DNA from: Patescibacteria group bacterium
Lineage (GTDB): Bacteria > Patescibacteriota > Microgenomatia > UBA8517
Direction: 5' to 3'
Length of the DNA: 64,000 nucleotides
Assembly: GCA_036381415.1 (NCBI GenBank)
Contig: DASVCV010000012.1
Location: 10,717 to 74,716, forward strand
The notes under the pieces are model-generated. The model ran no database searches, was not told the origin of the DNA, and worked only from the letters and a program-made list of their open reading frames with translations. A program made the position numbers and the translations under genes. Each line of letters starts with the position of its first letter. Position 1 is the first letter of the stretch. This document shows positions 1,910 through 59,634 of this stretch, one piece after another.

Positions 1910-2473
1910 ATGTCTTTAGCAAACATCACATCAAAACATAGAGGCAAATTAATAATAAAAGCCTACAAAAATAGCTTAAAGAAAAATCACAAAGTAATTG
2001 ATATTGGTTGCGGTAACGGAGTGATTACTACTCAATTAAAAGACTTCTTCAAATTTAAAGTAATCGGGTGTGACATTATAAACTATCTTTTAACCGACAT
2101 TCCATTTAGAAAAATGACTAAAGACAGTCAGATCCCCTTTCGCAATAAGTCCTTTGACATTTCCATGTTTAACGACGTCCTTCACCATATGCCAAAAGAA
2201 GTACAAATTAAAATGTTGAAAGAAGCATTAAGAGTAAGCAAAAAAGTTTTAATATTTGAAGTTCAGCCAACTATTTCAGGAACCATTTTTGATTTCATAT
2301 TAAATAAAATTCACAATTTTAATATGTATATTCCTTTTACTTTTAGAAAAACTGAGGATTGGGCAAAAGTATTTGAAAACTTAAATTGTAATTATAAAGT
2401 TATAACTGTTGATAGACCAACTTTTTACCCGTTTTCTCATGTTGCTTTCGTTTTGACAAAAACAAAGGACTAA
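1910..2473 (+). CDS. Class I SAM-dependent methyltransferase
   Basis: [12 protein letters not shown] glycine-rich SAM motif I; 187 aa; the 3' end overlaps a convergent gene. Confidence 0.7.
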
Positions 2474-4886
2474 CCTTTAATCTCCAAAACCCAATACCGC
2501 ACATCTTTGCCAACACCAACCCATGCTTAAAGGCTTTCATCTTAGATTTTCCAGCGACTCTCTTTTTGTAATGAACAGGCACTTCAATTATATCCAAGTT
2601 GTTTTCAGCAGCTCCAAACAATAAATCAAAGTCTCCCCATGATTTTCCACTCATTTTAACCTTCTTGTAATCACTTTTATATAAAGCTTTAGTACCACAA
2701 AGCGTATCTGTTATTCTTACACCTAAAAGCCAGGAAAATATCCAGCTAAAAACTAAATTTCCCACCAAATTAAGCTGTCTCATGGCTTGATCTTCCATTG
2801 GATAAATTAATCGGGTGCCATTTACAAAAGTTCCCAGCCCTTTTTCAAAAATATTAAAAAATCTCGGCAATTCCTCCGGAGGAACAGCCATATCTGCATC
2901 TAAAATCATTACGACATCCCCTTTAGAAGCATTCATCCCTTCCTTAACAGCCCAACCCTTACCTCTATTAGGTTTATACGAAACAAGCCTCAAGTTCTTA
3001 TACTTTCTCATCAATTGTTTAACTTCTCTTGCAGTCTTGTCCTTCGATCCATCGTCTACCACAATTATCTCAGTTCCCTTACCCATCTTAGGCACTCTAC
3101 TAATACAGTTTTTAATATTTTCCTCTTCATTAAAACAAGGAATAACAACTGAACAGCTAAGTTTTTTAGTAACTGCCAAATCCGCCTTGCTTGCAACAAT
3201 ATACTGCTCCAAGCAAAAACGATTTAGGAATGGGGTTTGCTGAACAACTGAATTAACCCATCTGCTGACAAAAGGTATGTGGACAGGAAATATTAATTTA
3301 TATCCACACTCTTCAACTTGATAACCTGATATATTTACAATATTTTTTAAATCCTGGAGTCTTAACCAATTCTTCTCACCTTCTGCCCTTTTTAAATTAA
3401 ACTTTTCTAAAACGGAAAAAACTTGTATCCATTTTGGGTTCAAGGAAGTAAGGATTATTTTTGATTTTGTTGTTGTATTATCTTTTAGTTTTTCAAGAAC
3501 AGTTTGGATATCTTCTAAATGATCAACTGAGTTCGGCATTATAACATAGTCAAAGCTACCTCCTATATTTATATTTTCGGGCTTGGAATTAATAAATTTA
3601 ATCTGTGAGTATCTTCTTTTTGCAGAAAGCATAATGTTCTCATCAGTATCAACACTTACAGCTTTCTTTGGATAAAGACTCGCTAGAATATCTCCCAACC
3701 CATACCCTACTTGCAATACATTTGCCCCTTCAGGAATAGACGATTTAAAAATCTGCCGCAATGAGTTATGGAAGTACCAGTTCTTTTCTCTCCAATAATC
3801 AAGACTCTTACTCATTGAAAAAGAAACAGCTTCTCTAGAAAACGCACTGTTTTTAACAATATCTTCAATCGTTGTATCAATATCATATTCATACTTCCAT
3901 TTAGGATAATGACCCTTAAACTTTTCTACAGAAGAAACATACCAAATATGGTCTCCAGTTCTATTTTCGTCTTTATATTCTGTAATTGCCTTTTTACCAC
4001 TGATATCTTCAATCTTTTTAATCGCCTCAATCATAGAAATGTTGGCAAATCTTGAACCTCCCATGTTATAAACCTCACCAATTCTTGGTTTTTGGTAAAA
4101 ATTATAAAAAGCATTTAGTAGATCATGGGAGTGGATATTATCTCTTACTTGCTTTCCTTTATACCCATATATAGTGTACTTACGTTCAGTTAAAATACAC
4201 TTAACTAAATAAGATAAAAATCCATGTTGCTCTGTACCTGCATGCCCAGATCCGGTAAGACACCCTCCCCTAAAAACACCAGTTGCTAAGTTAAAATATC
4301 TTCCATATTCCTGAACCATAAGATCCGCTGCTGCTTTTGAAACACCAAATAAAGAATGAGTGCTATTATCAATAGACATTGTTTCATCAATACCGTTTTT
4401 ATATTGATGTTTTGGACTAATCTCGTATCTAGTTTTTAATTCAATTAAGGGAAGTCTGTTAGGAGTATCTCCATAAACTTTATTTGTTGATGTATATATA
4501 AATACTCCATCAGAAGCATGACGCTTAAAACATTCAAGCAAATTTAATGTTCCATTGGCATTTACTCCAAAGTCAGTAAGAGGCTCCTTCGCAGCCCAGT
4601 CATGCGATGGCTGCGCAGCAGTGTGAATAATTAAATCAAACTTATGTTTTTCAAATATTTCTTCTAACTTATCAAAATCCCTTATATCATTCGAATAGTG
4701 AGAATAGTTTTTATATATCCTAAGAAGCTTTTTTACGTTTGGCTCAGTACTTCCTTCACTACCAAAGTAGTATTCCCTCATATTGTTGTCTATTCCAACT
4801 ACTTTGTACCCTAGATTAGAAAAAAAATGTACCGACTCAGATCCTATTAGTCCGCCTGATCCGGTAACTAAAATTGTCTTTGCCAT
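2400..4886 (-). CDS. Trifunctional fusion: NAD-dependent sugar epimerase (possibly CDP-paratose 2-epimerase-like), class I SAM methyltransferase, and GT2 glycosyltransferase (Dpm1-like)
   Basis: N-terminus [13 protein letters not shown] Rossmann fold plus [11 protein letters not shown] and HIWYVSS. Middle region [17 protein letters not shown] motif. C-terminus [37 protein letters not shown]. 828 aa. Confidence 0.75.
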
Positions 4887-4932
4887 TTCGGGTCCATATT
4901 ATATACTTACCAATTAGAAGTCAACTGTAAAT
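4887..4932. promoter_or_regulatory. Short divergent intergenic region (probable bidirectional promoter)
   Basis: 46 bp of AT-rich sequence between the divergently oriented 2400-4886 (-) and 4933-5946 (+) genes; it is the only place transcription of both could start. Confidence 0.4.
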
Positions 4933-7007: not shown

Positions 7008-8120
7008 TTACAAGCTTTTGAGCAAATTTAAACTTTTATTTTGAGCCGATTTCCAATCAAACTTCTTGCTCCACATAATCGCATTTTTTTGAAACTTGTT
7101 ATATTTATTTCTATTAGACATTAACTCAATACAATTCTTTGCTAATTTTTCCACATCTCCTTGAGAACACAACAATCCAGTCTTGTTATTAATTACCGAG
7201 TCTTTTACTCCACTTACGTTGTAGCCCACTACTGGCACACCCATTGAGTTTGCCTCAATATTTACCAATCCCCAACCTTCTCTTACAGAAGGGTTAAGCA
7301 TAATATCAGCTCTACCCAACAGCTCAAATTTTTTTTCCTCGCTAACAAACCCCCAAAATTTAATTATTCTATCTAGACTCAGCTCTTTAGCTCTTAACTT
7401 TAAAAATCTAAGATACTGCGTTTCACCTTTTCCTACAACCCAGAACTTACAATTATCTTTTAGTTTATTTATCAAACTAAATACCTCAATAGCCTCCTCA
7501 ATTCCTTTATCCTTAGACAAAGCGCCTAAATAAATAACTGTAGTTGCTTTTTCTCTTTTAAATTTTTTCTCTATCTTAGTAAAACCATTGTAAATTACTA
7601 CAATGTTCTTTTTTGGAATTCCCCACTTTTCTAAATCGTTCTTTGTTGATTGAGAAACAGTCATAAATAAAGTGCTTTTATATAAAAGCTTAAAAATGAA
7701 GGGCTCAAGCATTGTACCAACAACAAATGGAATTGTATTAAAAGGCCTTGGCCAAGGATTAAGTTTCCACACCTCCTTTGCAACTTCATGAATATACGCA
7801 ATCTTTTTGCCTCTAACAAAAATTGGGGTAAAAAATGGTATCCCATGAAACTGGTCAACCACTACATCATAGTTCTCATGTTTTTCAAGTATGTACCACA
7901 AAAAAGCAGCTACCTGAACACCAAAAACTTCTGATCCCCTCCTGATGATCTCCACCCCATCGACAATCTCCCTAACCTTTCCTCCACTAAAATAGGAGGT
8001 AAAAAGAGTGACCTCATGTCCTGCATTTACCCACCCCTTCGCATGCTCGTGGGTTGCAATTTCTGCTCCTCCAAAATGTGGATGTCCTGGACCTCTCCAG
8101 CTAAAAATAAGTATTCTCAT
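7008..8120 (-). CDS. GT4 (group 1) glycosyltransferase
   Basis: 370 aa; C-terminal EGWGLVNIEANSMGVPVVGYN E-x7-E motif; ATGA overlap with the upstream gene. Confidence 0.75.
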   Translation of the reverse strand: MRILIFSWRGPGHPHFGGAEIATHEHAKGWVNAGHEVTLFTSYFSGGKVREIVDGVEIIRRGSEVFGVQVAAFLWYILEKHENYDVVVDQFHGIPFFTPIFVRGKKIAYIHEVAKEVWKLNPWPRPFNTIPFVVGTMLEPFIFKLLYKSTLFMTVSQSTKNDLEKWGIPKKNIVVIYNGFTKIEKKFKREKATTVIYLGALSKDKGIEEAIEVFSLINKLKDNCKFWVVGKGETQYLRFLKLRAKELSLDRIIKFWGFVSEEKKFELLGRADIMLNPSVREGWGLVNIEANSMGVPVVGYNVSGVKDSVINNKTGLLCSQGDVEKLAKNCIELMSNRNKYNKFQKNAIMWSKKFDWKSAQNKSLNLLKSL

Positions 8121-8944
8121 CTTCCTTTAAACGTTAAGTAATGTGGAGTAATCCAAATACTTTTATTATCGCTCCTATAATATCGCTTTATTCTTAATCT
8201 ATAAAAGATTGCTAAAGTATCCCAAAACATCCAAAAAACAGTTCTTAAAAAACCCTTTGAAGTTAAAACAGATGCTCCTCCAAACTCCATTTTTAACTCA
8301 ATAGGAGCTTCGTATATTCTCTTAAATCCCAAGTAGTTTGCAACAGCAAGCATTTCTACATCAAATGCCCAAGCTTTAACTAATAATCTTGGTAAAGTCT
8401 TTTCTAACACTTTTCTTCTAAAGAATTTTAATCCAACCTGAGTATCTTTAATGTTAAGACCAAATAGCACTCTCACAAATATTTGGTACCCAAAAGATAA
8501 TATTCTTCTCTGCCATGGGTAGACAACTTTAGAAACAGGATGTCTTTTTGAACCTACTATTATGTCTGCCCTATACCACTCAAAATGTTCAAGAAGTAAA
8601 GATAAACTGTTGGGGTTTATATCAAAACCAGCATCAATAAATCCAATAATATCCCCTTTTGATTGGGCCATACCGTATTTAACAGCATGCCCTTTCCCCA
8701 AATTATTGTCATATCCAACTACCTTAATTTTTCTTCTATATCTTTTTGCTAACTTCTCAGCTTTTTCAAAAGTACCGTCGACTCTACCATCAACAACACA
8801 AATTATTTCATATGGATATCTCGTATCATCTAAAACATCCTTAACTCTCTTTAAACTTTTCTGTATTATTTTCTCTGCTTTATAAGCAGGAATGATTACT
8901 GATAAAAAAAGTGTCTCAGGCTTTTTTTGACCTCGCTTCTTCAT
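8117..8944 (-). CDS. GT2 family glycosyltransferase
   Basis: LSVIIPAYKAE..VVDGRVDGT..IDAGFD. The track start at 8950 is a TTG codon; the first ATG is at 8944. Confidence 0.8.
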   Translation of the reverse strand: MKKRGQKKPETLFLSVIIPAYKAEKIIQKSLKRVKDVLDDTRYPYEIICVVDGRVDGTFEKAEKLAKRYRRKIKVVGYDNNLGKGHAVKYGMAQSKGDIIGFIDAGFDINPNSLSLLLEHFEWYRADIIVGSKRHPVSKVVYPWQRRILSFGYQIFVRVLFGLNIKDTQVGLKFFRRKVLEKTLPRLLVKAWAFDVEMLAVANYLGFKRIYEAPIELKMEFGGASVLTSKGFLRTVFWMFWDTLAIFYRLRIKRYYRSDNKSIWITPHYLTFKGR

Positions 8945-10169
8945 ATCCAAAGTATATTAGCAGACTCATAAGAAGAAAAGAAGTTACGGCTAAGTTAACT
9001 TTCGCTATATTAAGAATTGAATCATGTATCCCAACAATAGCTAAAATCTGAATGAACGCAAAAATAACAACAAAAATAACAACTTTTGTCTTCCCAATAG
9101 ATAGATAGAAGGATGCTACTAAAGTAGAAAGACTAAATACTGCAGCAAACAATCCAAACCAAATCAAATTGCCAGAAGCAACTAAATACTTCTGTCCATA
9201 GAGAATGCCAATTGGCAAAGATGGGGTAAACAAATAAACAGCCAGTGCAATAAGTGACAAAACTGATGTCAATGCAAAACTTAGAAGAAATATTTGGATA
9301 TAATTCTCTCCTTTTGAGTGTTTCTTTGAAATCATAGGAAACATTACAGCACCTATTGGGCCTGAACCATAAAGAATTATTTTACCCACAGTAGAAAGTG
9401 CATCATATAAAGCAGCATCATTGGAATTAATAAAATGCTTAACTAATATTATATCTGTAGTTAAAAAAGAAGTTGAAGCAAGTGAAAACAAAAATACAGG
9501 CACCGTATACTTAAAGACATCTCCGCCAGCCTTAAAACTATATTTAAATTTAAAATTTTTGTAATCAGAAAGTAGTACCCATGTTATGAAAACTGAAAGA
9601 ATAGATGAAAGTAATATTCCCAGCACTCCACCCATAACTTCCAATCCAACAACTATTAATACCACACCAAAAACAACCCTACCCAGATATTCCAAATTAA
9701 TTGCAAAAACAAATTGTCCAAACTTAAGTAGTCCTTGAAGAAAGGATTTAAAAACAAGGGAGAAAAGGGCAAAGAATAATATTGGTCCAACTAAAACCAT
9801 TGTTTTTTCATCAATATGCAAAAAGTTCGATATAGAAGAAGTAGCTAATACAATGACAACTATTATTATTAATCCTAAAATTAACACTCTTCTTAAAAAC
9901 CATCCGAATATCCCCTTCACCTCATCTTTATCTTTTGCTTGTGAAACAAACTTAACAATAACTAACCCTATGAAATTAAACATTGCAGTAAATACTGCAA
10001 TTACAGAAATAACTGCTGCAAGGTCTGCATATAAAGACAAACTTAAAAATCTAGCAAGAATAATATGATATATAGAAGCAAAAAAGTTTGCTAAGTTTGT
10101 TCCAAGTATCATAACCGCACTACCAGCAAAAAAAGGATGTTTAACTACCTTTAGTATGTAAGATTTCAT
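8916..10169 (-). CDS. MOP-superfamily oligosaccharide flippase (Wzx-like polysaccharide biosynthesis protein)
   Basis: 417 aa; about 12 predicted TM helices; the architecture and position between glycosyltransferases are typical of Wzx-type flippases. Confidence 0.6.
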   Translation of the reverse strand: MKSYILKVVKHPFFAGSAVMILGTNLANFFASIYHIILARFLSLSLYADLAAVISVIAVFTAMFNFIGLVIVKFVSQAKDKDEVKGIFGWFLRRVLILGLIIIVVIVLATSSISNFLHIDEKTMVLVGPILFFALFSLVFKSFLQGLLKFGQFVFAINLEYLGRVVFGVVLIVVGLEVMGGVLGILLSSILSVFITWVLLSDYKNFKFKYSFKAGGDVFKYTVPVFLFSLASTSFLTTDIILVKHFINSNDAALYDALSTVGKIILYGSGPIGAVMFPMISKKHSKGENYIQIFLLSFALTSVLSLIALAVYLFTPSLPIGILYGQKYLVASGNLIWFGLFAAVFSLSTLVASFYLSIGKTKVVIFVVIFAFIQILAIVGIHDSILNIAKVNLAVTSFLLMSLLIYFGYEEARSKKA

Positions 10170-11269
10170 TTGGCTAAGCTTTCATATACAGCCAACGTGC
10201 CTTGGGCTGTGTTTTGCCAGGAGTATTTTTTAACAGCTTCTCTCCCACTATCAATATATTTATTTCTAAGTTTTTTGTCTTCAATAATTCTTTTGAACTT
10301 AGTTGCAAAATCCTCAGGTTTTTTAGCATCTGCAAAATAAGCACCATCTCCTGCAATTTCAACAAGTGCTTGAGTTCTAGATGCAACCACTGGCGTACCA
10401 CAGGTCAGTGCATCAACTACTGGTATTCCATACCCTTCATAATATGAAGGTTGACAGTAAATTGATGCGAGGTTGTAAATAGCTACCAAATCCTCATCAG
10501 GAACAAATCCTAATCTTTTTATATTCTTTGATTTGTCAAAAGCTTTTAATATCTGTTTAAAATGTGCAAGCTCTGGATGTGGTTTGTTTAAAACAAATCT
10601 AAACCAGTCCTTTAAACCTTTTATGTCATTTATTCCCATCCCTTGAGTTTCAATATCCATTGCTTGTTTTCCAGCAATAACCAAAGGAATATCTGCAATT
10701 TCACAAGCTTTAATTAAGGTTGGAATATTTTTATTGTAATTAACATCCCCAACGTATAAAACAAATTTGTCAGGTAAGCCATATTTTTCTCTAGCTTTAT
10801 TTAAGGTCTTCTGATCACCAATTTTTCTATAAATTGGCTTAGGTGCCAAATAAACTACATGTATTTTTTCTGGTCTTATTCCCAAAAATCTTACAATATC
10901 TTTCTTTGAAGTCTCAGAAATAGTAATTACTGCGTCTGCTCTTTTAACAAGAAACTTATTCAAATTAAATTTAATCTTTCCCTTTAATCCAGGTGGATAG
11001 TGCTTAGGATAAATTAGAGGAATTAAATCATGGATAGTAACTACTGTTTTTGTTTTTTTTATTAAAGGAAGGTTTACAAAAAAAGGATTAAAAAACTGAT
11101 AATGTGCAACATCAAATTTTGATAAGTCAGTTTTTGTAAAATCAACTGCTTCGACTTTTACCCCATTAAGCTTCTCCAAATGCTCTATAAGAAGCCTAGT
11201 ATGCACACCAATCCCTCTTACTGAGTGTCCTGATGTTAATGGTCCTGTATCAATTGCAACTTTAATCAT
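10166..11269 (-). CDS. GT4 (group 1) glycosyltransferase
   Basis: N-terminus MIKVAIDTGPL, C-terminus EGYGIPVVDALTCGTPVVAS. The track start at 11287 is TTG; the ATG at 11269 makes an ATGA overlap with the upstream stop. Confidence 0.75.
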   Translation of the reverse strand: MIKVAIDTGPLTSGHSVRGIGVHTRLLIEHLEKLNGVKVEAVDFTKTDLSKFDVAHYQFFNPFFVNLPLIKKTKTVVTIHDLIPLIYPKHYPPGLKGKIKFNLNKFLVKRADAVITISETSKKDIVRFLGIRPEKIHVVYLAPKPIYRKIGDQKTLNKAREKYGLPDKFVLYVGDVNYNKNIPTLIKACEIADIPLVIAGKQAMDIETQGMGINDIKGLKDWFRFVLNKPHPELAHFKQILKAFDKSKNIKRLGFVPDEDLVAIYNLASIYCQPSYYEGYGIPVVDALTCGTPVVASRTQALVEIAGDGAYFADAKKPEDFATKFKRIIEDKKLRNKYIDSGREAVKKYSWQNTAQGTLAVYESLAK

Positions 11270-12141
11270 AGTGCTTCTCCTGACCAATATTTAAAATAGG
11301 CAATTGGAAAATGAAATGCAGAAAATATTGACCAAACAAACCCTCTCATTCCATCCTCAAAGCCTTTATTTTTAATATATAAATTAACAAACACTGAAAA
11401 AGGCTTTAGGAATGAATAATAAATAAGTGAAAGGAAATTCTTTGATACCTTTTTCACTTTAAATTCTGCTGCGGTTAAACTTGTATATCTATTAGCTCTA
11501 GACAAGTATCTACTAAAGGTAGGTGAGTCATAATGCTCTAAATCATTAAACAGCCAAGCCACTTCTCCTTGTATTTTCATCTGTTCATGAACCGATTTTG
11601 CAGGCAAATATGCCTTTCCATTCTTAATAAGTCTAATAACAGCATCAGGATAAACTCCTGCATGAATAAGTGGTTTTCCTAAAAACATGTTTAGTCTTGG
11701 TATAAAAAATGCAACAATCTCACCCTTCTCACCTAATTTGCCATCTCTTTCTTCAATAATGCTTTGGTGCCTTTGAAATAATCTCCATTTCTTCATACTA
11801 CTTGGTCTTCTCCTACATATTTCCTCACTAGTCATATTAATCACTTCTTTAATTTCTTCTGCAAGTTCTTTTATAACTACCTCATCAGCATCCAATTGAA
11901 GTATCCAATCACCCTTTGCTTTCTCAATTGCCTTTTGTTTAGTTATATGGAAAACATCATGATGAGGCTCTTCATAAACCTTCGCGCCCAATCTTTTTGC
12001 AATCTCTGCTGTCTTATCAGTTGAATATTCATCAACAACAATAATCTCATCAGCTATATTCTTAACTGACTTCAGGCACCTTTCTATATTAGCTTCTTCA
12101 TTTCTGGTAGCAAGCACTACTGACAATTTCATCTTATCCAT
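11266..12141 (-). CDS. GT2 family glycosyltransferase (with a C-terminal extension)
   Basis: LSVVLATRNEEANI..VVDEYSTDKT..LDADE; paralogous to 37922-38686 and 41077-41979. The track start at 12156 is TTG; the first ATG is at 12141. Confidence 0.8.
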   Translation of the reverse strand: MDKMKLSVVLATRNEEANIERCLKSVKNIADEIIVVDEYSTDKTAEIAKRLGAKVYEEPHHDVFHITKQKAIEKAKGDWILQLDADEVVIKELAEEIKEVINMTSEEICRRRPSSMKKWRLFQRHQSIIEERDGKLGEKGEIVAFFIPRLNMFLGKPLIHAGVYPDAVIRLIKNGKAYLPAKSVHEQMKIQGEVAWLFNDLEHYDSPTFSRYLSRANRYTSLTAAEFKVKKVSKNFLSLIYYSFLKPFSVFVNLYIKNKGFEDGMRGFVWSIFSAFHFPIAYFKYWSGEAL

Positions 12142-12145
12142 ATTA

Positions 12146-13801
12146 CTAGTTTGCAACTATTTTAAAAACAGGCTTTCCATCAGGTCCATATATTACTCTT
12201 ACTATATTAGCTTCATTTGGAATCTCAGTATCCGTCCCCACAATTAAAGTATTTGGATTATCCACCTTTGCCTCATCAAATCTTATGGTTGAGAAATAAT
12301 ATTTATCAAAGTGGTTAACAGTTGAAAATCCAAATCCATCCCTAGGTGTAAGTGTATGCTCAGCCTGGAACTTAGCAGGCGAATACTTCATGTAGAAAAG
12401 AAAAAGTATATATGGCTGGTCATATCTATCAGTAACCAATATTTTCTGGTATGCACTCGTATGCCCTTGCACATAACTTACTAAGTCTTTTAATCCATAC
12501 TGAGATGAGAATGGATACTCCTTTGCCATATGCACATAATACATGTGTAAGTATCTTCCAAAATTAAGACAAATAGCTGCAACAACAACTATGTAGAATG
12601 CATTCCTTAAATTTGTTCTACTCACTCTTTTTCTAAACTGTGCAACAATGCACATCAGTCCAAACTCACTTAATATCACAAGAGGAATTATCATATTATG
12701 AGCACGTAATGCTCCAGGTGCCTGAAAAGTAAGTGCAGAAGCAACAGGAGCAACAATTAGCCACCACATAATTGTGGCATGCTCCTTCTTCAAATTCCTC
12801 ACAATTACAATTAACCCAATTCCTACAAGCACAACATCATATATATACATCTCTCCTGTTTCTGGAACTTTATTTCTTTGCACTTCATCTCCTGACAAAA
12901 ACAAAAACTCTCCCCAATAATGCTTTCCCCAATTTTCCAAGAATGCCAGCGAATAGTTAACTGCTTTATTATGAAGAGATTTTGCAAGTAAACTGCTTAT
13001 GTTTGAGTGTTCTCCTCTTTGTTCCTCTAGCCTTGATTTAGGTCCCGGATCTGCAAAAAGACCAACTCCAGCTGCTCTGGATAATGCTCCTCCCTTTGTC
13101 AGATCAAGTGCCAGAGGAAGTACAAGAACTAATCCAACTACTGCAGCAATAATAATTGTTCTCTTGCTCTTTAAAATATCTTTAAAATAAATTGCAAAAA
13201 GTCCAATTCCCAGTAGTGGAACAACAACTCTTGCAGCATGGTATGTATATAAAGCCAAAACAAAAGAAACTAGACACCCATAATAATACTTAGGTTTCTT
13301 TAAACCCTTTAGGAAAAGAAGAACTCCTAGGGATATAAAAAAGGTTGCTACATTTGCTTCCCATCCCCCTCTTGAAAAATGTATATGCCAGGGTGATATT
13401 GCAAGAAAAAAGCTTGCAACAAGTGATCCTTCTTCATCATCAAATAATTCCTTGACAAGCATATACACAAGTAGCACCGTGACTACCCCTAAAAACGCAG
13501 CTGGAGCCCGCACCGACATCTCGTTTAATCCAAAAAGCTTTACAAAAGGAACAACAATGTAGAAATAAAGACCAGGTTTATAATCATTAAATGACTGAAA
13601 GTGAATCGGCCAAGGGTTGCCATGTTCATCTTTTCCAGTTTGAATTAAAGAATAAGCATTGTAGCCAATTGCTGCTTCATCTGCATTAAGAGCAGGATAT
13701 GAATCAAGTTGATAAAACCTTAGAGTAAAAGCTAGAAGAACAATAAGTATAAGTGTTATTCTTCTTTTGTTTGATATTAATCCTAATAATCTTTCTTTCA
13801 T
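12146..13801 (-). CDS. PMT/GT39-like GT-C membrane glycosyltransferase (paralog A1); polyprenol-phosphate-sugar dependent by family
   Basis: Loop-1 motif NADEAAIGYNAYSLIQTGKDEHG..FQSFNDYKPGLYFY resembles the PMT DE(V)HFGKFASYY pattern; about 11 TM helices plus a C-terminal soluble domain. Confidence 0.7.
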   Translation of the reverse strand: MKERLLGLISNKRRITLILIVLLAFTLRFYQLDSYPALNADEAAIGYNAYSLIQTGKDEHGNPWPIHFQSFNDYKPGLYFYIVVPFVKLFGLNEMSVRAPAAFLGVVTVLLVYMLVKELFDDEEGSLVASFFLAISPWHIHFSRGGWEANVATFFISLGVLLFLKGLKKPKYYYGCLVSFVLALYTYHAARVVVPLLGIGLFAIYFKDILKSKRTIIIAAVVGLVLVLPLALDLTKGGALSRAAGVGLFADPGPKSRLEEQRGEHSNISSLLAKSLHNKAVNYSLAFLENWGKHYWGEFLFLSGDEVQRNKVPETGEMYIYDVVLVGIGLIVIVRNLKKEHATIMWWLIVAPVASALTFQAPGALRAHNMIIPLVILSEFGLMCIVAQFRKRVSRTNLRNAFYIVVVAAICLNFGRYLHMYYVHMAKEYPFSSQYGLKDLVSYVQGHTSAYQKILVTDRYDQPYILFLFYMKYSPAKFQAEHTLTPRDGFGFSTVNHFDKYYFSTIRFDEAKVDNPNTLIVGTDTEIPNEANIVRVIYGPDGKPVFKIVAN

Positions 13802-15489
13802 TTTAATATTTCTACAACTCTAAAAGCTGTCTTTCCATCTAAATATTTTATTTCCTTAATCAGTTTAAACCTGTTTGGATCACTTGAATCCTGTACGGGC
13901 ATTTTAATTGGATCTGCAACAATTAATTCACCTTTGTGCCCCTGGTCAGCTGACCAATCAATTGCACTAAATTCAATATTGTCTAATTTTTCAACCAATC
14001 CCACATCCCCCATTGGGCTTTCAGTTAAATGAGCCTGTGCTTGGTATTTAGCTGGGTCATACTTTTCAAAAAATAAAAAGTAAATATATGGCTGAGCATA
14101 GCTCTGTTCTACCTTTATTTTCTTGTAGTTTCCTTGTACTGGATAAACTGCTTCAACTATTTGTTTGTAGCCATATTCCCAATAAATAGAATCATGTTTA
14201 GGTAAATGTACAAAATAAGAGTCTAAATAGTAAACATAATTAGCAGTATATATAAGAGCAAGGGCAACAAAGATAATTCTATACCTGCTAATAAGTAAAT
14301 AAGCTCCATGAGCCATAATAATTACAAAAGGAATTACCATATTGAACGCCCTAACAGCATGCACCTGATCCCTAGATAATATCGAAGGAAGTGTAGCTAA
14401 AATAAGCCAAAGTCCTACAAATAAATTTTCCTTCTTTATCAACGAAGTCGGCAAAGCTTTGCTTAGCTTTCCCTTTACCATTGCCGCAAACCCAACTGCC
14501 ACTAAGAAGGCATCGCTAACCAAGAACATCCCCATATTAGGAGGTGAATGTCTTGGGTTAGTCCAATCCCCTTCAAAAAACAAAAATCTAACGGAAAAAT
14601 GATTAAAGAATCTGCCTAGCACTCCTCTTGCAAAATTAAGCCACTCGGGATGAAATAAGTAATAGGATAAGCTTCCTTTCACTTCTTGTCCTTCATCCAA
14701 AAAATCTTGTAAATATTTTTCAGGTCTGGGATTCGAAAAAACACTAAAGATAGCAAGCCTGCCAGTCTGCCCATTAAATAAACTTAGTATTATTGGTATA
14801 CAAACCAATACCCCAACAGCAATCGACTGCAAAATAACTTTTCTTTCTATTTTTAATAACTCCTTAAGGTACAAAACCAAAAGAAGTAAAACTACAATTC
14901 CTGTTGAAAGTTTTGCCCCTTGATATGCAGTAAGGGTTAAAGCAAAAAATACTGCTGAAAATATCAAGTATTTTCCCTTCTTGAAAGATTTGAAAAAAAA
15001 GTAAATACCAATAAGTGTAAGGGTCAAAGAAAGATTTATCTCCCAAGCACCTCTTGAAAAATGTATATGCCAGGAATTAATTGCTAAAAGAAAAGCTCCT
15101 AGAAGTGCAAGCTTTTCCTCTTTCCAAACTTCTTTAAGTACTAAATAAAGAAGTACTACTGCAAGTATCCCTGCTATTGCACTTGGGAGCCTTACTGCAA
15201 ACTCATTGAGCCCAAATATTAAAACTGAAGGAATTGCAGCATAAACATAAAGACCTGGTTTAAAATCTCCAAAAGACTTAAAAATAATTGGGAAAAGTGT
15301 TCCATACTCATCTCTTCCTGTTTTTAAAATTGAATAGGCATTGTATCCCAATGATGCTTCATCAGCAGTCAGATGAGGTGGAACATTACTTAGATTAACC
15401 AACCTCAAAACTGCAGCAAGAATAATTATCAAAAACAAGAACACAGTTATTTTTGATTTAATTTTCATAATATTTTTAATAAATAACAT
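13798..15489 (-). CDS. PMT/GT39-like GT-C membrane glycosyltransferase (paralog A2)
   Basis: TADEASLGYNAYSILKTGRDEYG..FKSFGDFKPGLYVY; 563 aa. Confidence 0.7.
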   Translation of the reverse strand: MLFIKNIMKIKSKITVFLFLIIILAAVLRLVNLSNVPPHLTADEASLGYNAYSILKTGRDEYGTLFPIIFKSFGDFKPGLYVYAAIPSVLIFGLNEFAVRLPSAIAGILAVVLLYLVLKEVWKEEKLALLGAFLLAINSWHIHFSRGAWEINLSLTLTLIGIYFFFKSFKKGKYLIFSAVFFALTLTAYQGAKLSTGIVVLLLLVLYLKELLKIERKVILQSIAVGVLVCIPIILSLFNGQTGRLAIFSVFSNPRPEKYLQDFLDEGQEVKGSLSYYLFHPEWLNFARGVLGRFFNHFSVRFLFFEGDWTNPRHSPPNMGMFLVSDAFLVAVGFAAMVKGKLSKALPTSLIKKENLFVGLWLILATLPSILSRDQVHAVRAFNMVIPFVIIMAHGAYLLISRYRIIFVALALIYTANYVYYLDSYFVHLPKHDSIYWEYGYKQIVEAVYPVQGNYKKIKVEQSYAQPYIYFLFFEKYDPAKYQAQAHLTESPMGDVGLVEKLDNIEFSAIDWSADQGHKGELIVADPIKMPVQDSSDPNRFKLIKEIKYLDGKTAFRVVEILK

Positions 15490-15497
15490 ATCCGTTT

Positions 15498-17192
15498 CTA
15501 GTTGCTATATATTTCAAAAGCTTTCTTTCCATCTAAAAAGTCATATGTTTTCAACAGCTTCCATCCTTTGGGATAATTACCAGGACTTGTAATAAGTAAG
15601 CACTTAGTTTTTGAGCAATCCACATTCTCCTTTTTACTCTCCAGTACAAATGTAGTCCCTTCTTTAGGAATTTGCCAGTCATTCACAAAGTAAAATTTAT
15701 CAAACCTATCCACCCAATACCAGTTGCTTTGGAAAAATCGGATTAGATTTGGATCATTTCTATATTTTTCCGGACTCCACCCTGAAAAGAAAAGAAGAAA
15801 TTCATGTGGTTCTCCATACTTCTTAGTCACTATAATCTTTTCATATTGAGAAGAGTTCTCATTTGCATAGCTATACACCTCTTTGTATCCGTATTGCCAA
15901 GCCCAAGAATAGTTATTTCTATAGCTGTTAGCATACACATTCAAATAATTTCCAAGCAATATAAACATAACTCCGCCAAACAGCAAGCTCACAAAAACTC
16001 TATACTTAGGCATTCTCTTTATAACCTCAACCAAACCAACTGCACTAAGTATTTGCGGAATAGGTAGCAATGTAGTTGCCCTAATAAGAGCAGATTCATC
16101 TTGTGTAATGGCTGCAGGAATAGGCGCCAGAATTAGCCATAATAATAGTAATCTCCAGTCTCTGTCTTTTATAGCCTTCTTGATCAAAATAAATAGTCCT
16201 AAATAAAAAAACGGCAATTCAGCCAGATATAAAACTCCATGATTTGGAACACTAAATTGATACTGAGTTCCACCTTTTAAAAACAAAAAGCTCGGAGAAA
16301 AATAATTTATATAGTTTCTTGCAAAATTAACTGAAAGATATGTGGCTTTGTTATATAAAAGCGACTTAAACGGCAGCTTTGAGCTATTACGCAAATCGTT
16401 TATTTGATTAATAGCTCCCTGATCAATCAAAAAAACTACATTAGACCTTGCCCTAGCTTGAGGATTTAAAAGAATAAAAGGCAGAGGTGCAAAAAACAAG
16501 AGTATGAAAGCAAATGAAACAACAATCTCTACACTTCTTCTAGAAATCTTCTGGATAAACTCCTTTCTATAAATCAAAAGTAAACCAACCAATATTAATG
16601 GCGAAAAAATTCTAGTTGAATGATATGAAAAAAGAGTCGAACCCAGAAATAAAAATGAAATAGGTGTAAACCATCTGTTCTTTTCTCTATTAAAAAAGAC
16701 AGCCATTGCAGTTGTCAGAAAAAATACAGACAAGTTGGACTGAAAAACTGCCCTTGATGGAAACAAAAGCCACGGATCAATTGCAGCAAAAAAAGAACCA
16801 ATAAGTGCAATTTTGCGGTTTTTTGTTATCCCAAGAGCAAGAAAATATACAGAAACAATTGTCAAAGTGCCTAAAAACGCATGTGGAAAGCGTATTGCAA
16901 CCTCATTAAGCCCAAAAACAGCTATAAAAGGAATTGTTAAGTAAAGATTAAGAGGAAGGGGATAGTCTCCATAAGCTCTAAAATTTGCAATTGGGAAAGC
17001 CTGACCCCACTCATCCTTGCCTGTCTTAAGGATAGAATAGGCATTATATCCATGGCTTACCTCATCCCAATTAAGGGAAGGTGGAACAAAATTTAAGTAA
17101 GAAAATCTTAAAACCGCTCCAAGCACCAATATTAGAACTAAATATTTATTTTTAAGTAAAAAGCCAATAATGTTATTTTTTATTTTCTTCAT
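15498..17192 (-). CDS. PMT/GT39-like GT-C membrane glycosyltransferase (paralog A3)
   Basis: NWDEVSHGYNAYSILKTGKDEWG. The track start at 17228 is TTG; the ATG at 17192 gives MKKIKNN. Confidence 0.7.
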   Translation of the reverse strand: MKKIKNNIIGFLLKNKYLVLILVLGAVLRFSYLNFVPPSLNWDEVSHGYNAYSILKTGKDEWGQAFPIANFRAYGDYPLPLNLYLTIPFIAVFGLNEVAIRFPHAFLGTLTIVSVYFLALGITKNRKIALIGSFFAAIDPWLLFPSRAVFQSNLSVFFLTTAMAVFFNREKNRWFTPISFLFLGSTLFSYHSTRIFSPLILVGLLLIYRKEFIQKISRRSVEIVVSFAFILLFFAPLPFILLNPQARARSNVVFLIDQGAINQINDLRNSSKLPFKSLLYNKATYLSVNFARNYINYFSPSFLFLKGGTQYQFSVPNHGVLYLAELPFFYLGLFILIKKAIKDRDWRLLLLWLILAPIPAAITQDESALIRATTLLPIPQILSAVGLVEVIKRMPKYRVFVSLLFGGVMFILLGNYLNVYANSYRNNYSWAWQYGYKEVYSYANENSSQYEKIIVTKKYGEPHEFLLFFSGWSPEKYRNDPNLIRFFQSNWYWVDRFDKFYFVNDWQIPKEGTTFVLESKKENVDCSKTKCLLITSPGNYPKGWKLLKTYDFLDGKKAFEIYSN

Positions 17193-18669
17193 ATTTAAAT
17201 TTCTTCCAGGTAGCTGCAACCAGCACAACTGCCAAAACGCTCACCCAATTTCCAACAGTTCTGACAGGTGTATCTGAAAAAACCGCCCCGTCTGCAGGAA
17301 TCAAACCATTTTTATCAGGTTGGTAATTCCAACCTGGAAAATAGTTTATATACTTTCCATCAGAAATCTTATCCGGTAGTTTATGGCCAAAGTTTGGCCA
17401 ATAATCATTAATTGATGCAAACCTTGATTCTGTCCAAAAAGCCCCGCTCTCCAAATCACTATCTGTAACACTCTTCCATATATCTGGTCTGAAAAAATTG
17501 TAGTTAAGAGCTATTGCAATTACCACAACGACAACAGCCATCCATACTCCAAATTTCCCTAAGTATTTTACAATCAGCCCTGAGGCAAGTGCGAAAGAAA
17601 AAACAGCAACACTCAAAAATCTCCATGGGAACTGAATATATTTCATAAACATTAAGTTGTTCCAAATAAATGTTGATTTATTATGAGTCAAGAAAAGTGC
17701 AAAAACTCCTATTAAAACTAAGGCCACAAAAATCTTTACATCCTTAGTAAATTTTCTCCTTAAGAGGACAATTAAACCAACAAGAAAAGGTAGAACCCAC
17801 TGTATCTGTCCAACTGATAAGCTAAGCCCATCATCAGTTCCCCATACAGATCCTCCATAACCCCAAAATCTGGAAACAAAAAGCTGCCCAATCGTTACAA
17901 AATTGGCTCTCCAATCAAAATATCCGCTTGTTGTAGAACCGATATCTACAAATTTTGATTCAAAAATAACCGGCAAAATATAAAACGCAGAAATTACAAA
18001 AGAAAAAAGTCCCGCAATTGCAAGGTATACAAATGGTTTTACATTTTTATATGTTAATAGCCTAAAGATTGTCCATCCTATTAAAAAGGGTAAAAATAAA
18101 ACAACTGACAAACTATGATTTAAGAGTAGAAGAGCAAAGAATAGACTAAACAGGACTAGATACGTCTTCTTCTTTGTAGACAAATAGTTTTCTATTTCTA
18201 AAATTATCAATGGAAAGAAAACAAAACTCATGCTCTCAGCCAGATCTCCCCTTACCCAGACATCAACTGCCCGGTATGGAGCATACAGATAAATAGCAGA
18301 TGACACTATCGCCGCCCAATCACTTTTCCAAATCTTTTTGGCCAGTAAAAACATTGCAAAAGCTGACATTACAAAGGATAAGGTAAAAGCAATTTTTAAA
18401 GAGTCTATTTTGCTAAAACCAACTAAATGAAATATTTCTCCAACTGCAAATGACACCTGTCCGTAAAAATTAAAAAGAGGCTCTCCATAACCAGCCCCCA
18501 CATCCTGCGCCCATCTGCATGGAATCTGTAAAGCTCTAAAGCACTTGTCTAGCTCAACCAAACGGATGTAGGGAAAATCCTGCATTGAGTAAATGCCAAA
18601 CTGGAGCATTCTCCAAAAAGCAGGGACAGATATAGCTAAAACAAGTAGAATTAAAAGTTTCTTTTTCAC
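17173..18669 (-). CDS. Polytopic membrane protein, putative GT-C (resembles the 'PTPS-related'/COG5617-type family)
   Basis: N-terminal motif LQIPCRWAQDVGAGYGEPLFNFY is shared with the N-terminal module of 46697-49711; about 12 TM helices; GTG start overlapping the upstream stop. Confidence 0.5.
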   Translation of the reverse strand: MKKKLLILLVLAISVPAFWRMLQFGIYSMQDFPYIRLVELDKCFRALQIPCRWAQDVGAGYGEPLFNFYGQVSFAVGEIFHLVGFSKIDSLKIAFTLSFVMSAFAMFLLAKKIWKSDWAAIVSSAIYLYAPYRAVDVWVRGDLAESMSFVFFPLIILEIENYLSTKKKTYLVLFSLFFALLLLNHSLSVVLFLPFLIGWTIFRLLTYKNVKPFVYLAIAGLFSFVISAFYILPVIFESKFVDIGSTTSGYFDWRANFVTIGQLFVSRFWGYGGSVWGTDDGLSLSVGQIQWVLPFLVGLIVLLRRKFTKDVKIFVALVLIGVFALFLTHNKSTFIWNNLMFMKYIQFPWRFLSVAVFSFALASGLIVKYLGKFGVWMAVVVVVIAIALNYNFFRPDIWKSVTDSDLESGAFWTESRFASINDYWPNFGHKLPDKISDGKYINYFPGWNYQPDKNGLIPADGAVFSDTPVRTVGNWVSVLAVVLVAATWKKFKYEENKK

Positions 18670-20291
18670 TTTGTTGATACAATATAATACGCCGGCGTCA
18701 GATTAGGATAATTCACTACAAAATCAATTTTTGCACTTGTAGGAAATTCAGATGGCTTCCCAACTAAGATAATATTTTTCAGCTTGCTGTCCACATTATA
18801 ATTAATATCTCGAAAAATATACTTTCCTATATTGTAGCTTCCCTGCTGGTCCACCCAACCATTAACTAATTCCCAATTCCTGCTTGCGCTCTGATACTCT
18901 CTAGGGTCTATTTTTTTATAAAAAGCTAAATAAATTTGAGGCTCTGAAACTGACTTTGAAATAATAACTTCCTTCTTTCCACCTTCTTCTTTAGATATAA
19001 AATCCACCACTTCTTTCGTTCCATATATCATACTAGGAGCATAAGAAACCCTCTGAGCATACACATACTTCTCAAAATTAAAAGCAAACGAAAGAAAAAC
19101 AACAATTACACTAGCAAACACAATTGCCTGCTTATAAAATCTAGGAAACTTAAGAACATATCTTCTATACAAATAGACTAACCCAAATGCCAATAAAATT
19201 TGCAGTGCAGGCATCATAAAAGCTACTCTGTTTGCAGCAAAACCAGGCCCTGTTGTTAAACTTGCAGGTATTGGACTTATTAATACCCAAAAAATAAATA
19301 GCCCTGCATTTTTAATTTGCCCACGGATTAATCCAACAATCAGTCCCACCAAAGATACAATGTCAAACAAGTACAATACCCCCACTCCTGGAACCATCCC
19401 ATAAGTTCCCTCATTTGGACCATTTGTAAAAAGAAACTGAGGAGAAAAGTAACTTAGGTAGTTTTTTGTAAAAGTTGTTGCAAGAGTAATAAGCTTATTA
19501 TTAAATGTTCTTGCCACTATATTTGCCTCTCCAGCCAAAATTGCCTGATACCGGTCCTGAGCAGACCATCCAGAAACCAAAGAAAAAATAGAAGATGAGG
19601 CAATCCTTGAGCTTCCAATTATATAAAAATAAACCGCTGAAGCTAAAAATAAAAACACTACCACACAAGCAAATAGAGTGTATTTTTCAATTTTTATCTC
19701 TTTTCTATAATTAAATATTAAGTATCCAACAATTAATGGAGTAAGCAATCTTGCCGTGTGATATGAAAACATATTAAGTCCAAAAACTAATGCACTCACA
19801 ACCAACAGCTTTGGCCTTTTAATACCTTCTATAAATAGAAGTATCCCCAGTGGTAAAAAAAATGTAGTTAGATTAGCTTCAAATGCCCCTCTTGAAAGCA
19901 TGATATGCCAAGGTGAAATTGCAACTAAGAATGAGGCAAGTAAAGCAGTTTTGTCTGTACTTAGCTTCTTAACTAGAAAATAGACAGCTACTAAAGCTAA
20001 ACTGCCAAGTACTGCATTAGGAAGTCTTGTAGCAGTTTCATTAAGTCCAAAAACTGCAATAAAAGGTATATCTAGATAGCTGTATAAAGGAAGCTTAGAA
20101 TCTCCAAATGATCTTAATATTAACGGAAAACTCACTCCCCACTGATCTTTTCCCGTTTTTAAAATTGAATAGGCATCATAACCAAACGAAGCTTCATCAG
20201 GAGTAAACCCAGCAGGTACACTATTTAATCCTATAACTCTAAGTAAGAATCCTAAAGATACAATTAATACTAAAATCCACTTTCGTGCCAC
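18666..20291 (-). CDS. PMT/GT39-like GT-C membrane glycosyltransferase (paralog A4)
   Basis: TPDEASFGYDAYSILKTGKDQWG..LRSFGDSKLPLYSY; apparent GTG start. Confidence 0.7.
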   Translation of the reverse strand: MARKWILVLIVSLGFLLRVIGLNSVPAGFTPDEASFGYDAYSILKTGKDQWGVSFPLILRSFGDSKLPLYSYLDIPFIAVFGLNETATRLPNAVLGSLALVAVYFLVKKLSTDKTALLASFLVAISPWHIMLSRGAFEANLTTFFLPLGILLFIEGIKRPKLLVVSALVFGLNMFSYHTARLLTPLIVGYLIFNYRKEIKIEKYTLFACVVVFLFLASAVYFYIIGSSRIASSSIFSLVSGWSAQDRYQAILAGEANIVARTFNNKLITLATTFTKNYLSYFSPQFLFTNGPNEGTYGMVPGVGVLYLFDIVSLVGLIVGLIRGQIKNAGLFIFWVLISPIPASLTTGPGFAANRVAFMMPALQILLAFGLVYLYRRYVLKFPRFYKQAIVFASVIVVFLSFAFNFEKYVYAQRVSYAPSMIYGTKEVVDFISKEEGGKKEVIISKSVSEPQIYLAFYKKIDPREYQSASRNWELVNGWVDQQGSYNIGKYIFRDINYNVDSKLKNIILVGKPSEFPTSAKIDFVVNYPNLTPAYYIVSTK

Positions 20292-21592
20292 AAATATATT
20301 ATACTTATCTTGTGTTCATAACTCCACCGGTTGAATTACAAGAAATACAACTCCTTAATCTATTCCATCTAGCTCTCACTCCTCTTGCCTTAAGGCTAAT
20401 AGGAATTATCTTTCGTGTATTAGGAAGTCTTCTTTTTAGTCTAGTTGCCTTTTATTTTGTAAAACCTAATAAACATAAAAACCTATTTCTTGCAGCAACT
20501 GGATTAATGTTTTTTCTATCACCCTGGGAAAGTCTTATTTCAACATTTTATCTTGTTCAGAGCATATTAATTTTCTTGCTTTTAGTTGTCCTTAAGTTTA
20601 AAAAAAGAATTCTATTAATCCCGCTTCTTTTAATTTCGATTTTCTTTTTATACAAAACATACGCTCCAACATATCTATTTACAAACAAATTATCTTCTTC
20701 AAACCTCTTAATAGAAATAAATGACAGACAAAAAGCTGATTATTTAATAGAGGGAAGAAAATTTGTAATCCCTCGTCCAATTAGGGGAGTTATTTATAAT
20801 AAACAGTTTCTAGCAGGTAACAAAATTCTAAACCAATTCATTTCCTTTTTTGATTTTGAACATCTTGTTTCTCCTCTTGATTCATATGAGTTAATAAGAT
20901 TAAGTGGGATTTCCCCAAAAGGAAACCTTCCTCTTTTTTATCTCTGGGATATTCCACTTGTTATTTATGGAGTGTATCTTCTGACTAAAGAGAATAAGAA
21001 CAATAAGAAGTATGTAATCTTTTTGTTTTTCATTTCACTTATCCCTTATATGATATTTGAGAAAAAACTTCTTCCCCAAACTGCATTTCTAACTTTAATT
21101 CCAATTCTCTTAATAGAACCCTTAGCCATTTACAAAATAATAAAACTAAAAAACAAAATTCCCCTTCTTTTAGTTTCTCTACTTTTTGCACTTAGCATCT
21201 TTAGCTACTACACAACTTTTTACTTCTCTCCACAAACCTACCAAAAACCAGAATCCTACCTGTATGAAGAAATCTCCAAATGGCTGTATAACAATTACGA
21301 CCCTAGTAAAACATATATTATCACTAACAAATTTGGTCCAACAGACAAGATGGTTTCATTCTATCTTCAAAAAACTTACAGCAATGTAAATTTTGAAGAG
21401 TTTGATCTATCAGAAAAAATTCCTCAAAAAAACACTTATTATGTTGGACTTGAAGGAGAATTTGTAGGACACGGCAAAAACCTGGAACAAAGAACACTCC
21501 CCGAGCATCTAAATATTGTTGATAAAATAACTGGACAGGAAGAACCAGTCTTTGAATATGGAAAGGAAATATGGATAGGATTATACAAATAA
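20285..21592 (+). CDS. N-terminally truncated PMT-like paralog (lacks TM1 and the DE loop); possible pseudogene or accessory subunit
   Basis: Aligns with the family from TM2 onward (LFLAATGLMFFLSPWES vs ALLGAFLLAINSWH; LFTNKLSSSN vs FLFFEGD). The ORF begins with GTG at the strand-switch point; the first ATG is at about 20503. Confidence 0.45.
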   Translation: MPQIYYTYLVFITPPVELQEIQLLNLFHLALTPLALRLIGIIFRVLGSLLFSLVAFYFVKPNKHKNLFLAATGLMFFLSPWESLISTFYLVQSILIFLLLVVLKFKKRILLIPLLLISIFFLYKTYAPTYLFTNKLSSSNLLIEINDRQKADYLIEGRKFVIPRPIRGVIYNKQFLAGNKILNQFISFFDFEHLVSPLDSYELIRLSGISPKGNLPLFYLWDIPLVIYGVYLLTKENKNNKKYVIFLFFISLIPYMIFEKKLLPQTAFLTLIPILLIEPLAIYKIIKLKNKIPLLLVSLLFALSIFSYYTTFYFSPQTYQKPESYLYEEISKWLYNNYDPSKTYIITNKFGPTDKMVSFYLQKTYSNVNFEEFDLSEKIPQKNTYYVGLEGEFVGHGKNLEQRTLPEHLNIVDKITGQEEPVFEYGKEIWIGLYK

Positions 21593-23127: not shown

Positions 23128-23135
23128 TCCCATTA

Positions 23136-26819: not shown

Positions 26820-26835
26820 AAATTCTAAACATGTC

Positions 26836-28614: not shown

Positions 28615-28616
28615 CT

Positions 28617-51316: not shown

Positions 51317-51317
51317 A

Positions 51318-52067: not shown

Positions 52068-52072
52068 ATATC

Positions 52073-54618: not shown

Positions 54619-54619
54619 T

Positions 54620-59633: not shown

Positions 59634-59634
59634 T

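Follow-up and report, generated by a model that had tools for sequence, protein, structure and literature searches.

The three-component glycosylation systems Arn (ArnA, ArnC, ArnT), Rgt, Pgf and Gtr follow a common logic, in which a nucleoside diphosphate (NDP)-sugar modifier of short-chain dehydrogenase/reductase (SDR) type is combined with a family 2 glycosyltransferase (GT2) lipid-phosphate sugar synthase, a flippase and a glycosyltransferase of the GT-C fold. ArnA is itself a fusion of an SDR to a group-transfer domain. A comparable cluster in Methanothermobacter encodes an SDR together with DPMS-like and RgtA-D-like proteins (PMC12820599). In the three-component systems for pentofuranose (Citrobacter youngae O1/O2; DprE1/E2), the lipid-phosphate-linked donor of a GT-C enzyme is diversified by an accessory SDR epimerase (PMC11127046). 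Here, we describe a gene from a 64-kb stretch of a Patescibacteria group genome (contig DASVCV010000012.1 of assembly GCA_036381415.1; hereafter "the window", meaning the whole 64,000 nucleotides analysed, to which all unattributed positions refer) that encodes an SDR, a methyltransferase (MT) and a GT2 in one polypeptide. Unlike the Arn, Rgt, Pgf and Gtr systems, the fusion puts modifier, methyltransferase and synthase on one chain, and its SDR lacks the catalytic Tyr; the pentofuranose systems differ from it in that their synthase is a phosphoribosyltransferase rather than a GT2, their SDR keeps the YxxxK motif, and they have no methyltransferase. The architecture is uncharacterised but varies a known strategy; more surprising is the Tyr-less, highly conserved, glycosyltransferase-coupled SDR family, here called SDR-F, to which its N-terminal domain belongs.

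The gene is an uninterrupted open reading frame (ORF) on the minus strand (2400..4886) with an ATG start, encoding 828 amino acids (aa) plus a stop codon. The Pfam model Epimerase (PF01370) matches aa 5-276 with 126.7 bits, the longer GDP_Man_Dehyd matches aa 6-342, and Glycos_transf_2 matches aa 579-708 (104.1 bits). The protein divides into three domains, all encoded on the minus strand: an extended SDR (SDR-F; aa 1-345, 3852..4886), a class I S-adenosylmethionine (SAM) methyltransferase (about aa 358-570; 3177..3791 for aa 366-570) and a GT-A-fold GT2 domain resembling DPMS, ArnC, GtrB and AglJ (aa 578-790, 2517..3155). Poorly conserved amphipathic helices with no predicted transmembrane (TM) segment complete the C-terminus (aa 791-828, 2403..2516). 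An AlphaFold2 model of the 828-aa protein, built with 27 homologs as input (mean predicted local distance difference test score (pLDDT) 76.9, predicted template-modelling score (pTM) 0.56), has three folded blocks and a low-confidence linker at aa 350-360. The SDR/MT junction lies at about nt 3792-3851, coinciding with a short linker (aa 346-365; MT-family homology begins at about aa 358), and the MT/GT2 junction at about nt 3156-3176. The first-pass annotation of the window had proposed a single 828-aa ORF with epimerase, methyltransferase and GT2 domains, which the ORF call and Pfam bear out; of the junctions it had placed, the one at 3900-3950 is within the SDR domain and the one at 3350-3450 within the MT domain.

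Given that a sequencing or assembly error could merge three separate genes, we considered whether the fusion is an artefact, and we regard that as having next to no probability. A word-index search found at least 54 protein clusters (at 90% identity) of 804-833 aa with the same three Pfam domains in the same order, sharing 54-88% identity with the window protein over 96-100% coverage, and these come from four data sources (NCBI, ENA, JGI and Logan assemblies), with named members from Woesebacteria, Daviesbacteria and "Patescibacteria group". The closest homolog (P0001) is 88% identical, and its cluster also contains an 828-aa protein (P0272) deposited as HEX6977547.1, "NAD-dependent epimerase/dehydratase family protein", from a Patescibacteria group metagenome-assembled genome (MAG). 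In 27 aligned full-length homologs both linkers are essentially gapless (gap fraction <=0.004 at each), the MT-GT2 pair is itself a widespread two-domain family, and no homopolymer runs occur at the junctions; the only run of at least seven bases in the ORF is an A8 at 4820, near the 5' end and distant from both junctions. The fusion is real, because there are many independent collinear homologs with ungapped linkers: it is a genuine single polypeptide, conserved in Microgenomates-type Patescibacteria, and it is old. Neither NCBIfam matching nor literature searches turned up a characterised enzyme with an SDR-MT-GT2 architecture, in line with the first-pass annotation, and the literature searches found no description of the three-domain architecture. 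Mean pairwise identity among the full-length homologs is 75% for the SDR, 56% for the MT and 47% for the GT2 domain, such that SDR-F is the most conserved part of the protein.

By both sequence and fold, the best solved relatives of aa 1-345 are CDP-tyvelose 2-epimerases (TyvE/RfbE; SDR1E), namely the Salmonella enzyme (1ORR; sequence E value 5e-35) and Thermodesulfatator TaTyvE (9RL0; 4e-33). Foldseek comparison with TyvE gave an E value of 1.5e-21 and a TM-score on the target of 0.80, and the fold agrees with 1ORR. SDR-F shares with these enzymes the Rossmann motif (GxxGxxG, aa 9-15), which is invariant in homologs as T8-G9-S-G-G12-L-I-G15, along with the acidic NAD-ribose residue D33; the catalytic Thr and Lys are also kept, with T134-N135-K136 and K184 invariant and the former matching the essential Thr124-Asn125-Lys126 of TaTyvE. 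The catalytic Tyr164 of 1ORR and 9RL0 aligns with Phe180 (codon 4347..4349, minus strand; HSLFGVSK in the window protein versus HSPYGCSK in both epimerases). The Phe is invariant in the 27 full-length homologs, and is found at the Tyr position in 112 of the 114 motif-bearing proteins among the top 120 matches and in all 77 stand-alone relatives from GTDB genomes. The "complete" NAD-dependent epimerase domain of the first-pass annotation is not supported as such, given that the Tyr of YxxxK is replaced. A TyvE-like family without the Tyr is likewise not described in the literature that was searched.

A 2026 structure paper on TaTyvE describes the TNK segment with its essential Asn125, the Val83-Ala84-Met85 segment, and a lid, Gly197-Trp207, that includes Gln205 (PMC13098431); we assigned the pocket residues of SDR-F by mapping these residues onto the alignment with 1ORR and 9RL0. 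Neither the sugar-positioning Val-Ala-Met segment nor Gln205 is kept. In the first case, a QPSHDW sequence that is invariant in the subfamily (aa 92-97, 4596..4613, minus strand) places P93-S94-H95 where TaTyvE has the sugar-contacting Val83-Ala84-Met85; in the second, the lid loop S213-F223 (4218..4250, minus strand; low pLDDT in the model) has an invariant His221 at the position of Gln205. All of these replacements are invariant, and the sugar pocket of SDR-F has been rebuilt rather than allowed to decay. Beyond these positions and Phe180, SDR-F differs from TyvE in being fused to other domains.

SDR-F is not confined to the MT-GT2 context. Among the word-index matches, it stands N-terminal to GT4 (PF00534), GT26 of the WecB/TagA/CpsF type (PF03808), GT8 (PF01501), GT6 (PF03414) and plain GT2 domains, and when one genome of each GTDB species was scanned, at least 600 SDR-F-like stretches came up, of which we analysed the loci of the best 80. 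These are mostly stand-alone genes of about 350 aa with 57-66% identity, and their hosts include Proteobacteria, Bacteroidota, Cyanobacteria, Verrucomicrobia, Planctomycetes, Acidobacteria, members of the Candidate Phyla Radiation (CPR) and archaea. A GT2 homologous to the window's Dpm1-like GT2 domain lies within 2.5 kb at 37 of the 80 loci, a second TyvE-like SDR that keeps the Tyr ("SDR2"; best PDB match 9RL0) is present at 30, and both are present at 21. Tyr-less SDR-F, Tyr-bearing TyvE-like SDR and Dpm1-like GT2 form a recurrent three-gene module of variable gene order, seen from Saccharibacteria to Nostoc and Methanoperedens (loci L006, L008, L011, L014, L016, L028, L030 and others); no NCBIfam equivalog matched any protein of this module, and none was reached by SDR-F, SDR2 or the GT2 domain. 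In Azospirillum brasilense MTCC4039, a cultured and genetically tractable host, a stand-alone SDR-F gene on plasmid p2 overlaps a GT26 (WecB/TagA/CpsF) gene by 4 bp (L085 8989-10871); it encodes both the Phe and QPSHDW, and lies downstream of a gene for an undecaprenyl-phosphate glucose phosphotransferase. Most of the plasmid matches (Sinorhizobium, Rhizobium) do not belong to SDR-F, being generic SDRs with 30% identity. Genes for GT-C enzymes, detected with a hidden Markov model built from the window's GT-C paralogs, lie near stand-alone SDR-F at only 7 of the 80 loci, and we therefore dropped the idea of a general link between SDR-F and GT-C enzymes outside CPR.

These partners bear on the stage at which SDR-F would act. 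There is precedent for SDR epimerases that modify undecaprenyl-phosphate-linked sugars in GT-C pathways (PMC11127046), and physical fusion to a lipid-sugar synthase would fit an SDR domain that works after transfer, on the lipid-linked sugar, like DprE2, Citrobacter ORF13 or Gnu. Nonetheless, we consider this improbable: SDR-F is also fused or coupled to GT4, GT8, GT6 and GT26 enzymes, none of them a lipid-phosphate sugar synthase, the NDP-binding C-terminal domain of extended SDRs is kept, and the alignment with TyvE runs over the whole length. We favour action on the NDP-sugar because the partners include these four families.

Whether SDR-F is an enzyme at all is a separate question. TaTyvE, the characterised enzyme closest to SDR-F, keeps tightly bound NAD+ when it carries a Y164F substitution, and its activity is then reduced at least 10^4-fold, even at high pH (PMC9207888); SDR-F, with Phe in every member seen, cannot carry out classical Tyr-based hydride transfer. 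SDR-F could be a non-catalytic pseudoenzyme, an NAD- and NDP-sugar-binding or tetramerising scaffold that recruits the donor or presents it to the attached glycosyltransferase, with MT-GT2 performing all of the chemistry. The frequent pairing with SDR2, which could be the active partner, is consistent with this possibility, as is the behaviour of the TaTyvE mutant; we nevertheless find it doubtful. SDR-F is the most conserved domain of the fusion (75%, versus 47-56% for the other two), and across the 17 loci that have all three genes of the module it is more conserved than its Tyr-bearing neighbour (68% for SDR-F versus 53% for SDR2 and 52% for GT2, a comparison biased by the choice of loci by SDR-F similarity). 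The sugar-pocket positions have changed to invariant His-containing replacements, with no sign of drift. Moreover, the 64-kb window itself has no SDR2 ortholog: the neighbouring SDRs at 4933-5946 and 5949-6947 were rejected as candidates, since the best window match of SDR2 is the fusion's own SDR domain.

The second half of the protein has a history of its own. Pfam methyltransferase models match at about aa 382-525 with marginal scores relative to their gathering scores (Methyltransf_31, 30.8 versus 27; Methyltransf_25, 27.7 versus 27; Methyltransf_11, 24.0 versus 21.2). Within the ten-residue motif I of the fusion clade (aa 390-399), GYGLG (394-398) is invariant, as is D413, the acidic residue at the end of beta-2, and the domain ends in a family-specific lid, NPxW...LKR.E..NWL; in the wider MT family, motif I is of the ordinary class I kind (VLExGCGTGD). 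A family profile matched many solved class I methyltransferases in the PDB (best E value 2.7e-16), and no MT substrate can be assigned because these matches are to generic class I enzymes alone. Searching the word index with the MT domain alone returned one fragment, and the Foldseek list against the PDB was filled by SDR matches, with nothing for the MT domain. Searched exhaustively with HMMER, aa 350-575 have 1449 relatives, 594 of them at E <=1e-10, comprising stand-alone methyltransferases of about 225-260 aa and many proteins of 430-510 aa; by Pfam, the longer relatives consist of an MT followed by a GT2, and the MT-GT2 unit also exists alone, at about 470-490 aa.

Residues 357-805 of the window protein align with such MT-GT2 proteins as a single high-scoring pair, with 28-44% identity and E values down to 1e-144. 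The collinear relatives (P0131-P0258, P0172, P0184, P0250) share the MT lid motifs and a DAD[LM]T.P sequence with the fusion and lack SDR-F; none has a name or a known function. Two of them, P0172 (936 aa) and P0184 (913 aa), are PMT_2(GT-C)-MT-GT2 proteins by Pfam, the MT-GT2 unit matching their C-terminal half, and P0250 (952 aa), placed by BLAST alignment only and not by Pfam, is likewise GT-C-MT-GT2. All three are metagenome proteins, and each would have a presumed donor synthase and a presumed donor user on one chain. The architecture also exists in split form: two Acidobacteriota MAGs (L052, L042) encode SDR-F on its own and, in the gene directly after it, an MT-GT2 protein. Judging from these alignments, the fusion is better described as the joining of SDR-F to a pre-existing, separately widespread MT-GT2 two-domain family.

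The GT2 domain contains VVDDGS (609-614), a ten-residue motif at 663-672 that includes D663-A-D665, and TD..CG (726-730; TDTLCG), such that the DDGS, DAD..PPEE.PR and TD motifs are all present. Its best solved relatives are Pyrococcus PfDPMS (5MLZ; E value 3e-17 over 210 aa), ArnC and GtrB, and its best NCBIfam alignments are to AglJ, dolichyl-phosphate hexose transferase, PgfS, ArnC and PpgS, which agrees with the Dpm1-like assignment in the first-pass annotation. With these polyprenyl-phosphate glycosyltransferases (PfDPMS, ArnC, GtrB 5EKP, AglJ, PgfS, PpgS) it shares the GT-A fold, DDGS, DAD..PPE..PR, the hydrophobic interface helix that precedes TD, and a genomic link to GT-C enzymes. That helix, at aa 705-723, is the most hydrophobic stretch, with a Kyte-Doolittle (KD) value of 1.6; apart from it, the only hydrophobic part is the amphipathic tail. 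The fusion differs from these enzymes in that MT and SDR domains precede the GT2 and C-terminal TM helices do not follow it.

An alternative is that the GT2 is an ordinary Leloir transferase that extends a glycan linked to lipid pyrophosphate or protein, with the MT capping or decorating the chain in the manner of WsaE- or WbdD-type terminators. MT-GT2 fusions with capping roles are known, WsaE being an example; the fusion gene lies within a Wzx/GT4/GT2 cluster, and the protein has neither a TM domain nor an equivalog-level NCBIfam score. We think this alternative unlikely, since the best full-length GT2 matches are all lipid-phosphate sugar synthases and MT-GT2 is fused to GT-C in three independent clusters. 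GT-C enzymes such as ArnT, PMT and EmbC use lipid-phosphate sugars, and the roughly 13 GT-C genes of the surrounding island would need such donors.

The explanation we favour, with about even confidence, is that two independent modules were fused to make a modified, possibly methylated, polyprenyl-phosphate sugar donor for the nearby GT-C enzymes. The MT-GT2 unit would most likely be a peripheral-membrane polyprenyl-phosphate glycosyltransferase of the DPMS/ArnC/GtrB type, loading a sugar from an NDP-sugar onto a lipid carrier at the cytoplasmic face, and the SAM methyltransferase built into the unit would add a methyl group to this sugar, either before it is transferred or afterwards. SDR-F would bind NAD and the NDP-sugar in its TyvE-like pocket and supply or alter the donor without the classical Tyr, either through a different reaction involving the remodelled His95, His221 and Lys184, or by holding the donor only. 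After flipping, the lipid-linked product would serve the island's GT-C enzymes. The architecture, its conservation, the state of the motifs and the patterns of fusion and gene neighbourhood are observed, and the substrates, the lipid acceptor and the order of steps in this scheme are inferred. In favour of this proposal are the GT-C-MT-GT2 fusions in three clusters, the roughly 13 GT-C paralogs in the island and the conserved synteny, along with the age of the fusion, the relatives of the GT2 domain, the split form in Acidobacteriota and the coupling of SDR-F to glycosyltransferases. We speculate that a C-2 epimer as product would fit the often manno-type partners of SDR-F (Dpm1-like, GT26), although this sits uneasily with the missing Tyr.

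Several observations weigh against this explanation. The YxxxK general base is missing from SDR-F, and the substitution that inactivates TaTyvE (PMC9207888) is its natural state. The MT domain has Gln392 in place of the usual acidic residue of motif I, where stand-alone relatives have Glu, and it matches just generic class I methyltransferases with unrelated or unknown substrates. NCBIfam scores for the GT2 domain are far under the equivalog cut-offs (101 versus 325 bits for AglJ), and the Gln of DADxQ (DPMS, ArnC, GtrB; the DADLQxPPE signature) is Ala in the motif at 663-672. The fusion contains no TM segment, with no 19-residue window above a KD value of 1.61, and the C-terminal TM anchor is absent. 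In full-length homologs that are more distant, the GT2 motifs have degenerated (VDGSP, YDD, EAE). Indeed, in the fusion ortholog of Daviesbacteria GCA_016187025.1 (L001 10001-12496) both the DxD (YEAEM) and DDGS (VDYGS) motifs are lost; two genes upstream (8510-9235) lies an intact gene for a stand-alone GT2 of 241 aa that shares 58% identity with the GT2 domain of the window protein, which suggests decay of the fused domain with a back-up copy present. Lastly, the inter-domain geometry is not confidently predicted (pTM 0.56), and no result supports the substrate channelling that the first-pass annotation had read into the fusion; any such channelling would be conjecture, as would the order that it gave for the steps, from sugar modification through methylation to transfer.

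The window as a whole is a glycosylation island, with about 13 PMT_2/ArnT-like GT-C paralogs, about 12 GT2 genes, membrane proteins related to YfhO and PTPS, GT4s, two Wzx-type flippases, further SDRs including RmlB, and further methyltransferases. Among the GT2 genes are five similar to the GT2 domain of the fusion and one that includes a GtrA/DPMS TM domain. The fusion gene forms the end of a conserved cluster: the order GT-C array, GT2, GT4, Wzx, GT2, GT4, SDR, fusion is shared with Daviesbacteria and another Microgenomates contig. In the window, this upstream cluster (7008..12156, minus strand) consists of genes for a GT4 (7008-8120), a Dpm1-like GT2 (8117-8950), a Wzx flippase (8916-10169), a second GT4 (10166-11287) and a GT2 (11266-12156). 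An RmlD/HpnA-like SDR gene (4933-5946, plus strand) adjoins the fusion gene, and is followed by a GDP-fucose-synthase-like SDR gene (5949-6947, minus strand); orthologs of these two, with 49% and 72% identity, respectively, flank the Daviesbacteria fusion gene. The GT-C paralogs, presumed users of lipid-phosphate sugar donors, occupy a first block (12146..30344) and further positions at 38683-40227, 45204-46718 and 49739-56173. They encode proteins of 500-590 aa with 25-35% mutual identity, stand almost back to back, and are nearly all on the minus strand; about 13 of them is an unusually large investment for a small-genome Patescibacteria.

Other features of the window concern the immediate surroundings of the fusion gene and the remainder of the island. 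The start codons of the fusion gene and the divergent SDR gene at 4933-5946 are 46 bp apart (4887-4932), and promoter-like hexamers in this interval (TTGACT, 17 nt, TAATAT) are no commoner than in shuffled sequence; the same is true of terminator-like sites around the fusion gene. At its 3' end, the gene is overlapped by 74 nt by a convergent plus-strand ORF for a 187-aa class I methyltransferase (1910-2473), and the last 25 or so residues of the fusion protein are poorly conserved. Midway through the GT-C array lies a DHH/DHHA1 phosphoesterase gene (53620-54618). Another family of large membrane proteins, with weak matches to YfhO, PTPS_related or DUF6044, is encoded at 17173-18669, 23136-24401, 46697-49711 and 34224-36593; one of them, of 1004 aa, looks like a fusion of the two shorter paralogs, and the family may represent additional GT-C-like enzymes. 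At 58464-59654 is the gene for a classical GT2 to which a GtrA/DPMS TM domain (PF04138) is fused, and a bona fide dTDP-glucose 4,6-dehydratase, RmlB, is encoded at 60904-61911 (453.6 bits versus a cut-off of 365.1). The window has a GC content of about 34%, all of its 2-kb bins show a negative GC skew (cumulative -7.0), and of its 49 ORFs of at least 150 aa about 43 are on the minus strand.

A bolder proposal, which we put forward only tentatively, is that SDR-F is an unrecognised, very widespread TyvE-like subfamily of bacteria and archaea (about 60% identity across phyla) that has abandoned the universal catalytic Tyr and remade its sugar pocket with invariant His residues. It would carry out a Tyr-independent reaction on an NDP-sugar, or else serve as a dedicated module for donor delivery with an obligatory link, through fusion or overlapping genes, to glycosyltransferases from at least five CAZy families; on this view, the CPR fusion would produce a new methylated lipid-linked donor all on its own. 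Catalytic activity in SDR-F would challenge the rule by which SDRs acting on NDP-sugars depend on the tyrosine of YxxxK; an inactive SDR-F would be a strikingly conserved pseudoenzyme partner of glycosyltransferases. The fusion also acts as a Rosetta stone, linking Tyr-less SDR-F with MT-GT2. Both are large uncharacterised families with members in cultured genera, among them Azospirillum, Deinococcus, Nostoc and Emticicia, in which they are testable. Patescibacteria have tiny genomes, yet the 64 kb of the window are spent on glycosylation, and understanding how donors are made for about 13 GT-C enzymes would be a step towards understanding the surfaces that these episymbionts use for host attachment.

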